A DNA stretch of 64,000 nucleotides, taken from assembly GCA_023406895.1 (NCBI GenBank), contig JAEXTV010000016.1, positions 64,663 through 128,662 on the forward strand, given 5' to 3'. Each line of letters begins with the position of its first letter. Position 1 is the stretch's first letter. The position numbers were made by a program, and so were the translations under genes. Positions 2,778 through 38,430 of this stretch are shown in pieces. A model generated the notes under the pieces. It searched no databases. It had not been told where the DNA came from and saw nothing but the letters and a program-made list of their open reading frames with translations. The DNA is from Bacillota bacterium (GTDB taxonomy: Bacteria; Bacillota; Clostridia; Christensenellales; SZUA-584).

Positions 2778-3858
2778 CTATACTCACCAATCGATAGGCG
2801 CGGCTGCCAAAACCAATTTCTTCGGCATGCTCCAAAATGTGCGTCCCGTTTCTCGATTCAATGCGTTTAATCACAGATTTGCTGTCCGGGGCGGCATAAA
2901 TCAAATCGACACAGGCCTGATCGAGAGCCACCGGATCCAGCGAGGCGAGAATGCCGATGTCGTGCATATCCGGTTTGTTGGGGAATGCATCGCAGTCACA
3001 GTCCACCGAGATATTATTCATCACGTTGATACAGAGCATCTTGTTACCGTTATCAAGGTAGTCATATACCGATTTCGCGGCCTCTGCCATACTCTCGGTA
3101 AAGGTATCCGCGGGCGTACTCGGGCTATAGCCTGTTTTATTGGCTCCGGCACTGTGAATGAGTGATTTTCCTTCTTTTGAGGCAATACCGATCGACATAT
3201 TTTTGAGAGCACCGCCGAACCCGCCCATCATATGGCCTTTAAAATGCGAAAGAACAATGCAGAAGTCGTAATCCATAAAATGAGAACCAACCTGGTTTGT
3301 GGTCAGTCGTGTGCCGCCGTTGACGGGGATTTCAGTGCCGCCGTCGGCATCCATGATATCAACAGGTGCAATGGCCGTATAGCCGCGGTCCTCCGCCACT
3401 TGCATATGCATCGCCGTGCTGGCGCGTGAGCCACCATAAGCCGTGTTGCACTCAACAATTGTCCCGTCGACTGACTGAACAAGGTCTTTAATTAAATCGG
3501 GCTCGAGATTATAGCTACCCTCTCCTTCACCGGTATTCAGCTTCACCGCCACTTTGCCCTCAGCGGTGCGGCCCAAGGCATTATAGATGGCCATCAAGCC
3601 CTCCGGGCTTAAATCGGTGGTCATATACACAATGGGCGCGTCTTCCGAGTCTGTTTGATGTTCGAGCATGCCCGATGCCTGCGGGCTGGTGCTGCTGTCT
3701 GCGCTTTCCGAGGATTCCGGTGCGGCCAAAGGGCTTGGCGAAGGGCTTGCAGCCGGGCTGGCGGTTGCGTCACCGGTTTGACCGGCAACCTCGCTGCATC
3801 CGGCCAGCAAGCTCATCGTCATGACAATAGCGAAAAGGAGTGATAAAAAACGTTTCAC
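2770..3858 (-). CDS. Exported lipoprotein with a DUF362-like domain
   Basis: Signal peptide plus lipobox (MSLLAGC), a Ser/Pro-rich linker, then a core with FKGHMMGGFGGALKNMSIG, VDCDCDAF and LDPVALDQACVDLI, which I recognise as DUF362-like. Confidence 0.6.
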   Translation of the reverse strand: MKRFLSLLFAIVMTMSLLAGCSEVAGQTGDATASPAASPSPSPLAAPESSESADSSTSPQASGMLEHQTDSEDAPIVYMTTDLSPEGLMAIYNALGRTAEGKVAVKLNTGEGEGSYNLEPDLIKDLVQSVDGTIVECNTAYGGSRASTAMHMQVAEDRGYTAIAPVDIMDADGGTEIPVNGGTRLTTNQVGSHFMDYDFCIVLSHFKGHMMGGFGGALKNMSIGIASKEGKSLIHSAGANKTGYSPSTPADTFTESMAEAAKSVYDYLDNGNKMLCINVMNNISVDCDCDAFPNKPDMHDIGILASLDPVALDQACVDLIYAAPDSKSVIKRIESRNGTHILEHAEEIGFGSRAYRLVSIDD

Positions 3859-3907
3859 ATGACACCTCCAAAATTGACTTGTATAATGGCTTATATTTGA
3901 AGGCTAA

Positions 3908-12954: not shown

Positions 12955-13376
12955 CCTTATATTCCTTTCCTAGATGGCGGCAAATATTAAGCCGCGCATG
13001 AATTGAGGCAGCCGAACGGTCATAGCGCGTGCGCTTTAGACTTCATAGCTTTGCGTCCCCGGCTTTCGCCGGGTTTGCCTTTCTCAGAAGTTGACAGAAC
13101 CATTACCAGCCATCCTTTACCGCTTGTCTTATGGCGGCCTACTCATCACAACACACTCCTTCGCAGAATTTCCCCAACATCAAAGTCTTTTGCAGACTTT
13201 TGCATCCTTTTTGCCCATACAAAATAATTCTAACATCGGGGTTGTTGTCGTCAATTTCTATTATTGTTAATATATGTCGATTTCTGTAGACTTTTTTATC
13301 GGAAAATATCATTTTGCATTGCCCACATGTTCTTGCGCCTTTTGCCATATATATAGAGCAAGAAAGCGAGGAAGCC

Positions 13377-35852: not shown

Positions 35853-35950
35853 CAAAAATAAAAACCGCCGGACAAGCTTATGCCCAGGCGGTCGACAATC
35901 TACAACGCCCATACTCCCCTGTGGTCAATCCACTTCCGCCAGTCGTATGG
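35853..35950 (-). promoter_or_regulatory. ZTP (pfl motif) riboswitch with terminator expression platform, upstream of folD
   Basis: On the minus strand: CCATAC-GACTGGCGGAA-GTGG-attga-CCAC-AGGGGAG-GTATGG, a linker, then CCGCCTGGGCA. P1 is CCATAC/GTATGG and P2 is GTGG/CCAC. The conserved ACUGGCG, GGGGAG and CCGCCUGGGCA blocks are all present. The terminator GACCGCC..GGCGGT plus TTTTTATTTTT shares CCGCC with the 3' subdomain. Confidence 0.85.
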
Positions 35951-35959
35951 TTCAAAAAA

Positions 35960-36008: not shown

Positions 36009-36317
36009 CTATTGCAGACAGCGTTCTCTTGCTTTGTCCAATTTCGCGTTGCGGAAGTAAAGACATATATCGATGGTGATTTCTATGATGTTCAACATAT
36101 AAAAAACCCAGCCCATATAGAACAGAAAACTCAAGCCTGTGCCCGATGCATACTGCATAAACTTGCGTGTGATGCCGAATATGTAGCCGATCCAGACAAA
36201 CACTTCAAAAAGCAGGCTTTTGCCCTTTGCTGTGCGCGATTTGTACGACCGATAGATGGAAATCGGCCACGACAAACCAAAACAGATAATCATTAAAGCT
36301 TCCAAAAGATCAATCAT
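36009..36317 (-). CDS. Small 3-TM membrane protein, PQ-loop/SemiSWEET-like
   Basis: 102 aa. GLSWPISIYRSYKSRTAKGKSL resembles the PQ-loop motif (PQxxxNxKxKSxxGxS). RBS CAGGAGAG. Confidence 0.5.
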   Translation of the reverse strand: MIDLLEALMIICFGLSWPISIYRSYKSRTAKGKSLLFEVFVWIGYIFGITRKFMQYASGTGLSFLFYMGWVFYMLNIIEITIDICLYFRNAKLDKARERCLQ

Positions 36318-36823
36318 AATACGTCTCTCCTGTGATGCAAATTACATCTGTGATCATACACCTATGCATCGGATAGGGAAAGCTTATTATCGAAAAGATC
36401 TTCTAAGTGAAAACCTATTTCATCGACAGAATGAAAGGGAGTTTATATAAGCTGATATTGACGTAAAAGAATTTAGATCATTCAATACTTATTTATCTCT
36501 TAACTGATCGTACAAGCGTATAGTTGAGCCTATTGCTCTTTCAGTCCACCGTTTTTGATTTTCTCTCCCACAGACTCCGAATCGGTGACAGCCCTCAATT
36601 CACCCTAATAAGGCAGTCGTCAGAAAAGCCCGCTGTAAGAGGGCTTTATTCCATTTTCATATGGATGGCGCTGATTGAATGAGGCGGGATGATTTATTTC
36701 ATTGAACCGGGGTTCGTAGGGGATGCCACCGCAGGAATCGCCGCGCTGTTATAAGGCTTTTGCGCCTCAGCAGCGTGCAAAATCGGCCGTCAAGACAGCG
36801 AATCGACTTAATCAGAACTGACT

Positions 36824-36990
36824 GAAAAAGAAAAACGGCGCATGCTGCGCCGCTTCGAGCTTCCCCGTATCCGGGGCGTGGTTAGGAGGTCAGTCTAAAC
36901 TTTGTAGGTATCTGAGCGCCATTGCTGCAGGCGTTTATAAGCTGCGTTTCCTCTGAGACCTTTCTTCACCGCTCCACCGTTTGCCATTGA
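36824..36990 (-). ncRNA. Candidate small RNA or cis-regulatory leader (promoter plus terminator unit, class unknown)
   Basis: On the minus strand: TTGCGT (37023-37018), a 17-nt spacer, GATAAT (37000-36995), then about 165 nt ending in CGGCGCA-tgc-TGCGCCG plus TTTTTCTTTTT (36852-36824). It has an internal hairpin CCCCG-gata-CGGGG and no SD-preceded ORF. Confidence 0.25.
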
Positions 36991-37057
36991 TTTTATTATC
37001 CATAACCCCGGAGCAAAACGCAAACGCCGTCCATGCACAAAAAATAAAGGAAACCAC

Positions 37058-37092
37058 AGAAAAAAGAAGCGTCGTGGATTTGTTACGCTTCT
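37058..37092 (-). terminator. Rho-independent terminator downstream of the UDG genes
   Basis: On the minus strand: AGAAGCGT-aacaaatccacg-ACGCTTCT followed by TTTTTCTG. Confidence 0.65.
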
Positions 37093-37276
37093 ATGACTTT
37101 TTTAATATTTTTGTAACATGTCCCATTTTTGCTGTTCAGATCTGCTTTTGTGTACAATTAACCGGAATATGAACGGTTTCCTTTACTAAAGCGATCTATC
37201 CTTCTTGATAGATATCGCCTTTGCGTATTGACTCGTTTAAGCTTTTAAGGTTATTAACTTATTAGTGTCACCGATT

Positions 37277-37879
37277 TCATTTGAGTGTGGGCTTAATCCC
37301 AAGCGCATCCAAAAAGCTCCGGAGCTTTTTTAAGTCCTCATCGTAAACGGCTTTGAGCGCCCTGTTGTAAATGATGCTCGCCGGATGGTAGAGCGGAAAC
37401 AGCATAAACCGGTGCGACAGCGCGTGCGCAGTCACAGGCATGGCATGGCTGCCGCCGATTGTCGCACCGCTGCCATGCAGCGCCTTTAACGGCACGTTTC
37501 CGAGTGTCACCACCACGCGCGGTGAGATCGCCTCAATCTCGCGCAGCAGCAGCGGCGTCATCGCGGCAAGCTCATCCTTTTCAGGAGGACGATTGGAGAG
37601 CGTCCCTTTTTCGCTCTGCTTGTACGGCCTGAATTTAACCACGTTCGATATATAGATGTCCTCCCGGCGCAGCTTCAGCGCAAGTAGAAACTCATCGAGA
37701 TTCTTGCCCGCTTTGCCCACGAACGGGCGCAGCAGCCGCGTTTCCTCGGCACCCGGCGCTTCGCCGATCAGCATCACGGCGGCGTTCTCGTCGCCTTCCC
37801 CATAAACAAGATCCTTTTCGGTTCTGTGAAAAGCGCGGGCGGCTTTCAGCACGTCGGCATAGATGCTGTCAAGCTTCAT
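37277..37879 (-). CDS. Family-4-like uracil-DNA glycosylase superfamily protein lacking all cysteines
   Basis: I moved the start to MKLDSIYADV, which follows AGGGGA. Motifs GEGDENAAVMLIGEAPGAEE..RPFVGKAGKNL and HPASIIYN. It has no Cys anywhere, and an extra loop FRPYKQSEKGTLSNRPPEKDE sits where canonical family 4 has CRPPxNR. Confidence 0.75.
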   Translation of the reverse strand: MKLDSIYADVLKAARAFHRTEKDLVYGEGDENAAVMLIGEAPGAEETRLLRPFVGKAGKNLDEFLLALKLRREDIYISNVVKFRPYKQSEKGTLSNRPPEKDELAAMTPLLLREIEAISPRVVVTLGNVPLKALHGSGATIGGSHAMPVTAHALSHRFMLFPLYHPASIIYNRALKAVYDEDLKKLRSFLDALGIKPTLK

Positions 37880-38430
37880 TGTTGTCCCCTGTCTCATTGT
37901 ATTTTTGCTTTATGGCCAGCAGGTCTTTGTACGCGTCCTTTTTCAGCTGCTCGTTTCGAAGCAGCGCGGCCGGATGGTACGTGGCCATGATTGAAAATCC
38001 CTTTACCTCGTGCCACACCCCGCGGTCTCTCATAATGCGAACGTCCTGATTGAGTATATATTTCGCCGAAATGCGCCCGAGGCACACGATGATCTTGGGC
38101 TTGATCAGTGCCACCTGCCCGCGCAGATACCCGATGCACGCGGCCGCTTCCTCCGGCTCGGGGTCCCGGGCGACACTTTAGCACATTCGCGATGTACACA
38201 TCGTTGCGCGTGAGCGCAATGCTGCCGAGCATTTTGTCGAGCAGTTGCCCCGCGCGCCCCACAAACGGACGCCCAAGATCATTCTCATCGCGCCCCGGTC
38301 CTTCGCCGATAAACATGATGCGCGCGTGACAATTGCCCTCGCCGAACACCGTGTGTGTGCGGGTTTTGCATAGGCCGCATTTTTGGCATGCCGCCACTTC
38401 ATTCATGATTTGTATAAGGCTTGTATACAT
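37869..38430 (-). pseudogene. Canonical family-4 (Fe-S) uracil-DNA glycosylase interrupted by a frameshift near 38161-38172
   Basis: ORF 37894..38430 is UDG4-like up to CQKCGLC..GEGNCHARIMFIGEGPGRDEN..VYIANVLKCRP. The rest, RDPEPEEAAACIGYLRGQVALIKPKIIVCLG..ATYHPAALLRN, continues in another frame (ORF 37869..38114). The junction is at TGTCGCCCGGGACCCCGAG. Confidence 0.7.

Follow-up and report, generated by a model that had tools for sequence, protein, structure and literature searches.

The 959-nt spacer between a uracil-DNA glycosylase (UDG) gene and the gene for a 102-amino-acid (102-aa) membrane protein, located on a contig of an uncultured Bacillota bacterium (positions 36318-37276 of a 64,000-nt stretch of JAEXTV010000016.1, the whole stretch being referred to as the window), contains a unit that is best described as an unannotated candidate small RNA (sRNA) family of a familiar kind. 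Conservation and synteny of the unit, its promoter and terminator pattern, its lack of coding capacity, and its independence from the 102-aa gene were established by comparison with related sequences. With modest confidence, we propose from these patterns that it specifies an independent trans-acting sRNA, which would be transcribed from its own promoter and would pair with ribosome-binding sites (RBSs) of target mRNAs. On the minus strand, the order of the locus is UDG1, UDG2, the spacer, the 102-aa gene, a ZTP riboswitch, and folD. Four conserved modules were recognized in the spacer, a sequence block next to UDG2 designated box A, the promoter with the unit of about 165 nt, a rod-like element, and a promoter-like box with the RBS of the 102-aa gene. 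The spacer appears on balance to be a composite of independent elements and not one RNA. Coordinates are collected in Table 1.

Table 1. Elements of the spacer and neighbouring genes (window coordinates)
Feature	Position	Strand	Remarks
UDG1	37894-38430	-	frameshifted
UDG2	37277-37897	-	
Spacer	36318-37276	-	959 nt
Variable spacer after UDG2 stop	37133-37276	-	hairpin GGCGATATCTATC..GATAGATCGC; closest relatives only
Box A	37078-37125	-	TGGGACATGTTACAAAAATATTAAA-N8-CATAGAAGCGTAACAAAT
Terminator T1 of UDG1-UDG2 operon	37058-37092	-	stem AGAAGCGT/ACGCTTCT, then T run (T6)
Predicted sRNA promoter	36995-37023	-	-35 TTGCGT 37023-37018, 17-nt spacer, -10 GATAAT 37000-36995
Candidate sRNA, ~164 nt	36825-36988	-	variable 5' two-thirds, universal 3' third
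GGUGGAGCGGUG of candidate sRNA	36980-36967	-	within variable 5' part
ACCUCCUAACCAC of candidate sRNA	36890-36878	-	
Hairpin CCCCG-GAUA-CGGGG of candidate sRNA	36876-36863	-	followed by CUCGAAGC
Terminator T2	36856-36825	-	stem 36856-36836, U run 36835-36825
Rod element, degenerate copy	36667-36820	+	convergent with candidate sRNA; nhmmer E = 6e-22
Window-specific filler	36390-36660	-	hairpin AAAGCCCTC..GGGCTTT 36647-36625; second box 36562-36545
Proximal control region of 102-aa gene	36318-36381	-	TTTCCC 36381-36376, 17 nt, TATGAT 36358-36353, RBS GGAGAG 36330-36325
102-aa three-helix membrane protein	36009-36317	-	context, outside conserved RNA modules
ZTP riboswitch	35875-35956	-	Rfam gathering score, 58.5 bits

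A candidate small RNA downstream of UDG2

Relatives of the locus were gathered via the 102-aa protein, by a genome scan and contig look-ups, and via UDG2. The resulting comparative set, drawn from a single uncultured clade of Bacillota (OH_* metagenome-assembled genomes, LEMO22, and JGI contigs), comprised 14 distinct sequences representing 11 lineages, labelled L001 (the window), L092, L004, L005, L006, L019, L089, L110, L104/105, L106-109, L111-113, and L114. Three assemblies have a spacer identical to that of the window, and UDG2 identity to the window declines from 99% to 75% across lineages. While cdaA, UDG1, UDG2, and the spacer are common to all 11 lineages, the 102-aa gene is found downstream in seven (the window, L092, L004, L005, L006, L019, and L089) and is absent in five (L110, L104/105, L106-109, L111-113, and L114). 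In the latter, the spacer is followed by the ZTP riboswitch and folD or by convergent genes, for example tkt. Box A and the candidate sRNA unit follow UDG2 in all 11 lineages, including the five devoid of the 102-aa gene. The unit is present once per locus and always after UDG2. No paralogues were detected in the window or in about 120 loci, and every locus outside the clade lacks the unit, among them all of about 80 loci with homologues of the 102-aa gene.

Promoter-like sequences, TTTGY and GATAAT (TATGAAT in L106 and L111), are present at fixed spacing in all 14 sequences, and the letters between them vary. Likewise invariant are ACCTCCT(A/T)AC, the hairpin CCCC..GGGG, CTC / CTCGAAGC, and a GC-rich terminator stem. 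The segment ACCUCCUAAC is also invariant and was predicted to be partly to mostly unpaired. Overall, identity in the 3' module is 81-100% except for L106, the most distant lineage (69%), compared to 53-70% at third-codon positions of UDG2. The fifth pair of its hairpin is A-U instead of G-C (CCCCA/UGGGG) in L111 and, by our reading of the sequence, in L106 and L108. One pair in the stem of T2 (153/164) is compensatory, with A-U replacing G-C in four sequences, and G-U pairs that fit the minus strand only were detected as well. The 5' two-thirds of the candidate sRNA could not be aligned beyond the closest relatives and have no common structure, and the consensus structure over the 14 sequences is restricted to the two 3' hairpins, the short hairpin and the terminator. 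Neither a conserved aptamer core with covarying helices nor a constant downstream gene, two general characteristics of riboswitches, was found over these sequences; the neighbour is the 102-aa gene, the ZTP riboswitch with folD, or convergent tkt.

Most lineages possess a 5' segment GGUGGAG(C), which is able to pair with ACCUCC, CCAC, or GCUC. L104/105 and L114 lack this partner, and in L111 it has diverged. With the 5' GGUGGAG, the mean unpaired probability of ACCUCC is 0.27-0.50, compared to 0.69-0.89 in L104, L111, and L114 without the partner. L105 is an exception with a value of 0.38 despite the absence of GGUGGAG.

Coding capacity was not apparent. All open reading frames (ORFs) within the spacer are short, with at most 63 aa, and none is conserved according to ORF listing and comparison with relatives. 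A conserved ORF was not found on either strand of the candidate sRNA; the start codon of a 30-aa ORF at 36987 is absent in L005 and the frame is interrupted by an 11-nt indel in L004, and a plus-strand ORF behind AGGAGGT in L106 is broken or not conserved. A Pfam search with six-frame fragments of the spacer yielded no significant match. Nor was a known RNA family detected. Rfam returned nothing for 36318-37276 at the gathering score or at E < 1, and a permissive search (E <= 10) of 36200-37400 and 36815-37135 produced noise only. The Rfam 15 matches at gathering score in the whole window are the ZTP riboswitch and a c-di-GMP-I riboswitch, both outside the spacer. Ten relatives were scanned with a library including riboswitches, 6S, tmRNA, SRP, RNase P, and RsaE, and ZTP alone was recovered.

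The spacer had been described before from its letters alone, and all five features listed in this original prediction are present where it placed them. The absence of a credible ORF and of a riboswitch, tmRNA, RNase P, SRP, or 6S match was confirmed, and a promoter TTGCGT-17-GATAAT followed by about 165 nt and a strong terminator turned out to be conserved in relatives. The unit had been called sRNA- or riboswitch-like; a self-contained sRNA with conserved promoter and terminator agrees with the comparisons, a riboswitch does not. Orthologous regions provided covariation in T2, in the 3' hairpin, and in the rod element, but no conserved 5' part of the unit. The idea of a long structured leader of the 102-aa gene did not hold, as the unit is kept without the gene and about 500 nt on its 3' side are variable.

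A variable body combined with an invariant single-stranded pyrimidine segment, a hairpin, and a terminator corresponds to the architecture of trans-acting base-pairing sRNAs. ACCUCCU is the anti-Shine-Dalgarno heptamer at the 3' end of 16S rRNA. It is contained in the invariant segment, and the most economical mechanism would be occlusion of GUUAGGAGGU-type RBSs. The following arrangement is proposed. The UDG1-UDG2 operon would end at T1, embedded in box A. A promoter of the sigma-70 type would drive synthesis of the sRNA of about 164 nt (36988-36825), which would end at T2. Selection would act on the 3' third, composed of the mostly unstructured ACCUCCUAAC(C)AC, the short GC hairpin, and the terminator. 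The sRNA would act in trans by pairing with Shine-Dalgarno regions (..GUUAGGAGGU..) of target mRNAs, thereby blocking translation initiation, and in most lineages the 5' GGUGGAG could fold back on the seed and mask it partly. Further downstream, the decayed rod on the opposite strand, about 270 nt of filler, and finally the own promoter and RBS of the 102-aa gene would follow.

Several observations weigh against this proposal. The promoter matches the consensus at 8 of 12 positions and was consequently not listed by a simple scan. Potential targets of ACCUCC in the 64-kb window or in 6-8 kb flanks of eight lineages were neither convincing nor conserved. A bare ACCUCCU seed fits almost any strong RBS, which leaves specificity unexplained, and why CUCGAAGC and box A are invariant is not explained by the sRNA model. 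Finally, the family was seen in one narrow uncultured clade only. The exact pattern GACCTCCTAACCAC..AAGCTCG had no match in JGI metagenomes, the nine matches to GGTGGAGC..CCTCCTAACCAC in the same metagenomes were all due to chance, and the sRNA pattern was not found in viral contigs.

A rod-forming element within and beyond the clade

In several lineages, T2 is directly followed by a long hairpin of about 155 nt, designated rod. The copy in the window, the only one within the 64 kb, is degenerate. With a covariance model, it scored 18 bits (36673-36800, plus strand) compared to 105-123 bits in L006, L089, L110, L104, and L111, and it retains 30 of 51 consensus pairs, while 45-48 are kept in these lineages. 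The z-score of its fold is -0.8, but -1.7 to -5.7 in intact relatives. L019, L106-109, and L114 have no rod, and L004 and L092 have lost half of it.

An alignment of the rods from L006, L089, L110, L104/105, and L111 (A10) contains 51 pairs, which are paired to 90.8%, in contrast to about 40% if the partners are slid. Compensatory changes were detected in 13 pairs, compared to 5.0 +/- 1.5 in shuffled alignments (0 of 500 shuffles). The reverse complement folds better by 14-29 kcal/mol in four of five lineages, which argues for the plus strand of the window as the RNA sense of the rod. From a second alignment (A11; 38 pairs, 21 compensatory compared to 7.3 +/- 1.9 in shuffles, again 0 of 500), a covariance model, R1, was constructed. 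Its E-values are rough due to a shortened calibration.

Full-length members outside the clade were located by BLAST and R1, with R1 scores of 44-112 bits. In Subdoligranulum variabile (OY725836), the rod is intercistronic and on the strand of the genes (112 bits). Two Limiplasma genomes (75 and 51 bits) contain it on the sense strand in the 5' untranslated region (5'UTR), about 200 nt in length, of their gene of the 102-aa family, whereas in the window the degenerate rod and the nearby member of that family are on opposite strands. Other carriers are replicons of Pseudoalteromonas (52 and 48 bits), one copy lying between two co-oriented genes, and a Shewanella plasmid (44 bits); the sequences of these two genera were not part of the model. 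The settings in Oscillospiraceae, Limiplasma, Pseudoalteromonas, and Shewanella are 5'UTRs and intercistronic spacers. In Pseudoalteromonas, BLAST revealed 10-13 places per replicon of 1.2-1.3 Mb. No Rfam family matched any rod member, E. coli genomes were free of copies, and an 18-mer from the tip matched viral contigs only once, within a long ORF of a phage, which was judged to be chance. From these sequence comparisons, the rod is regarded as an unannotated, dispersed, cross-phylum family of rod-forming elements with the conserved tip GGAAUAGCAGCGCUAUUUC.

The closest known kind are repeats of the ERIC/REPIN/MITE type. Like these, the rod is an imperfect palindrome of about 115-165 nt forming one long hairpin, is intergenic and often inside transcription units in either orientation, occurs in multiple copies in Pseudoalteromonas, and is decayed or partly deleted in some copies. 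It differs by a core conserved across Bacillota and Gammaproteobacteria and by syntenic positions with compensatory changes within one clade. It also resembles 6S RNA in its rod shape, its length of about 150-180 nt, and its closure by the two ends of the molecule, but it has no Rfam 6S match and no large central bubble, is dispensable in sister lineages, and is multi-copy in Pseudoalteromonas.

Two further observations were made in the vicinity of rods. At positions 1451-1651 of L118 and at 46 other places in the plasmid collection, the Pseudoalteromonas rod core is contained in an unannotated repeat of about 130-200 nt, and in secondary replicons of this genus a further hairpin, AGGGATAACA..TGTTATCCCT, adjoins the rod repeat. 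UDG2 of the window and of L092 are 98-99% identical, third-codon positions included, but the rod regions only 67% (36667-36820 compared to 2737-2839 of L092), with a 25-nt deletion in L092. From its sequence, the spacer appears to be a hotspot for recombination or indels.

Box A, the remaining spacer, and neighbouring genes

Few non-coding sequences of the locus are as conserved as box A. It is present once in the window, and its identity is 90-100% to the seven closest lineages and 74-100% overall, compared to 53-70% for third-codon positions of UDG2, where the most distant comparisons gave 53-56%. In the most distant lineages, the 5' TGGGACATG is lost and the core TTACAAAAATATTAAA..CATAAAAGYGTAACA is kept. 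The 5' arm and loop of T1 are part of box A. Most relatives keep T1 at this position, although its 3' arm shows G-U pairs and other exchanges, and box A stays conserved where this arm differs (L106 and L111), suggesting that it is more than a part of a terminator. T1 itself, already noted in the original prediction, has a 12-nt loop and was for this reason missed by a simple terminator scan. On the plus strand, box A resembles a promoter, TTGTTA-17/18-TAATAT with a variable centre, directed antisense into UDG2. The plus-strand ORF downstream (ATGTCCCA) is not conserved among relatives. No convincing match to sigma-54, ECF, SigE/F/G/K, LexA, or CcpA-type motifs was apparent in an informal comparison by eye, and the box A pattern had no match in viral contigs. 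Between box A and the UDG2 stop codon, the window has a variable spacer, which is absent in L006, L019, L089, L110, L104, L106, L111, and L114, where box A adjoins the stop codon.

A more remote locus, L115, with UDG2 73% identical and a different synteny, has a diverged box A (TTAC..TATTAA..ATAAGTGTAACAT) after UDG2 (3592-3860). The same spacer contains a short unit ending with UGUCUCCUCCGC and a terminator, possibly an abbreviated counterpart of the candidate sRNA at the same position.

T2 and the 102-aa gene are separated by about 75 to 510 nt, and close relatives lack some or all of this part. In the window it includes the filler, which was not detected in any relative, not even in L092 with 99% nucleotide identity in UDG2. 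BLAST of the 270 nt against the window and loci L001-L094 gave the self-match only, and a repeat or MITE was rejected for this unique sequence. Two features of the original prediction map here. The inverted repeat of AAGCCCTC and GGGCTT (I20), proposed to take part in mutually exclusive pairings, is present, but within these genome-unique 270 nt. The second box, AAAATCAA..AAACGGTGGA, also exists, but its score of 25 is at chance level (shuffles 18.8 +/- 2.4, maximum 32). In contrast, the last 65 nt or so before the ATG are well kept in the seven lineages carrying the 102-aa gene, with invariant GGTGTATGATC, including the -10-like TATGAT, and GGAGA. The RBS GGAGAG was predicted correctly, but the preceding hairpin GATGCA..TGCATC is not retained in relatives.

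The 102-aa protein is highly conserved, with 2578 homologues. Genes with 75-81% identity are found in other contexts, preceded by spacers of about 100-190 nt. An AlphaFold model (pLDDT 78) had SemiSWEETs as all of its top 10 fold matches in the PDB (TM 0.58-0.80). The protein shares three membrane helices and a length of about 100 aa with SemiSWEETs, and solved SemiSWEETs are nearest to its predicted structure, but sequence identity is only 9-18%. PQ-loop models in Pfam and NCBIfam did not match, and Pfam PQ-loop or MtN3 was not found even at E <= 10. The label PQ-loop/SemiSWEET-like is thus reasonable at the level of the predicted fold and finds no counterpart in Pfam models.

The UDG pair represents tandem family-4 uracil-DNA glycosylase genes, UDG1 being the first. 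UDG1 shows an 11-nt deletion (CCGCCGGGCAA) compared to L092, a close relative, by which part of ..CRPPGNRDP.. is gone and the frame is shifted. As the deletion recurs in three independent assemblies (L001-L003), UDG1 is probably a pseudogene and not the result of an assembly error. The ZTP (ZMP/ZTP, pfl) riboswitch is located directly upstream of folD, an ordinary known arrangement kept in most relatives, and the c-di-GMP-I aptamer is far from the spacer (13004-13089, minus strand, 75.4 bits). In the Limiplasma locus L011, an Rfam match to SpF59_sRNA (ldcC RNA; 3521-3576, minus strand, 55 bits) precedes the 102-aa gene by about 430 nt and has no relation to the elements described above.

Competing explanations and implications

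Four other explanations of the spacer were considered. In the preferred reading of the original prediction, the unit is a riboswitch or cis-acting leader, and T2 controls read-through into the 102-aa gene. Promoter, conserved RNA, and terminator are indeed on the same strand as this small transporter-like gene and upstream of it, T2 is only about 75 nt away from the start codon in L019, and in most close relatives the 5' GGUGGAGC can pair with ACCUCC..CCAC and GCUC, closing a three-way junction. However, this partner and the rest of the 5' two-thirds are not conserved over the 14 sequences, as described above, and inspection revealed no antiterminator pairing that covaries with T2. Moreover, the unit is kept in five lineages without the gene, in front of the ZTP riboswitch and folD or of convergent genes, it is missing upstream of the gene elsewhere, its distance to the gene is highly variable, and a conserved promoter-like box precedes the gene itself. 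These findings argue that the unit is not a leader, and the riboswitch is very unlikely, close to being refuted. Still less probable is a single large structured non-coding RNA, be it the whole spacer of about 960 nt or the 500 nt or so from box A through the unit to the rod. The whole spacer folds better than shuffled sequence (z = -3.9, based on 20 shuffles only) and the three conserved blocks adjoin each other in several lineages, but the stretch is interrupted by a promoter and by two strong intrinsic terminators, T1 and T2, the blocks are independent of each other, as seen from the lineages in which the rod is missing or half-deleted, the stable fold of the rod is on the other strand, and a part of 270 nt is specific to the genome of the window. 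Just as improbable are decayed protein genes or a small protein. Short ORFs are present, and a reverse-strand translation of the rod, ..AGIAALF.GF.D.AE.KI.RQ.., recurs across lineages. However, stop codons or 1-nt indels interrupt this frame in the window, L005, L110, L111, and L092, a profile of the peptide matched none of 5.8 billion proteins, six-frame Pfam searches were negative, and the 13-21 compensatory pair changes in the same columns indicate constraint on the RNA level. The peptide is regarded as a by-product, and a decayed gene, like an Rfam family explaining the region, was not found; the ORFs inside the candidate sRNA are not conserved either.

In a further explanation, the conserved blocks act mainly as DNA, box A being an operator or a promoter for an antisense RNA to UDG2, the rod tip a regulator site, and the sRNA a by-product. 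The conserved -35/-10-like hexamers on the plus strand of box A, 17-18 nt apart around a variable centre, fit this view, as does the association of box A with UDG2 in L115, and the rod tip AATAGC-N3-GCTATT is a near-perfect palindrome found in both orientations relative to neighbour genes. Promoter, terminator, and the invariant ACCUCCUAAC and hairpin of the unit would be left without explanation, and so would the 38-51 covarying rod pairs and the strong strand asymmetry of folding energy. As a general account it is unlikely, but a DNA-level role of box A itself may exist; it is compatible with a trans-acting sRNA and does not exclude it.

Compared to known systems, the unit is most similar to RoxS/RsaE. 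It shares a size of 100-200 nt, an own promoter pattern and an intrinsic terminator, and a conserved pyrimidine-rich single-stranded segment complementary to RBSs beside short GC hairpins, with the rest poorly conserved. Sequence or covariance-model similarity was not detected (Rfam including RsaE, E <= 10). Instead of several CCCC motifs, the unit has a single ACCUCCU, and it is known from one uncultured clade only. CsfG is another C-rich anti-Shine-Dalgarno sRNA of Firmicutes. Terminating riboswitches are similar to the unit in the window in combining promoter, conserved RNA, and intrinsic terminator upstream of a small transporter-like gene, but the unit has no multi-helix aptamer core, constant downstream gene, or covarying antiterminator, and it persists without the gene.

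A more far-reaching view is rather doubtful. The unit may be an anti-Shine-Dalgarno mimic, with ACCUCCU tail and 5' mask and tied to the UDG genes via box A, and the rod may be a new functional structured RNA present across phyla and characterized by its GGAAUAGCAGCGCUAUUUC tip. If so, the sRNA would compete with ribosomes for strong RBSs, and the rod, instead of being a selfish repeat, would for example bind a conserved protein or influence processing or stability. Already as a rod that is supported by covariation and recurs across phyla, the element could be curated in Rfam and used to examine if repeats of the ERIC type are selfish or have a function. For the locus, the independence of the RNA unit from the transporter-like gene speaks for abandoning the riboswitch lead. 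What emerges is a clade-specific candidate sRNA with an anti-Shine-Dalgarno sequence as its sole invariant single-stranded segment, and it would offer a simple and testable model of translational control in uncultured Bacillota.

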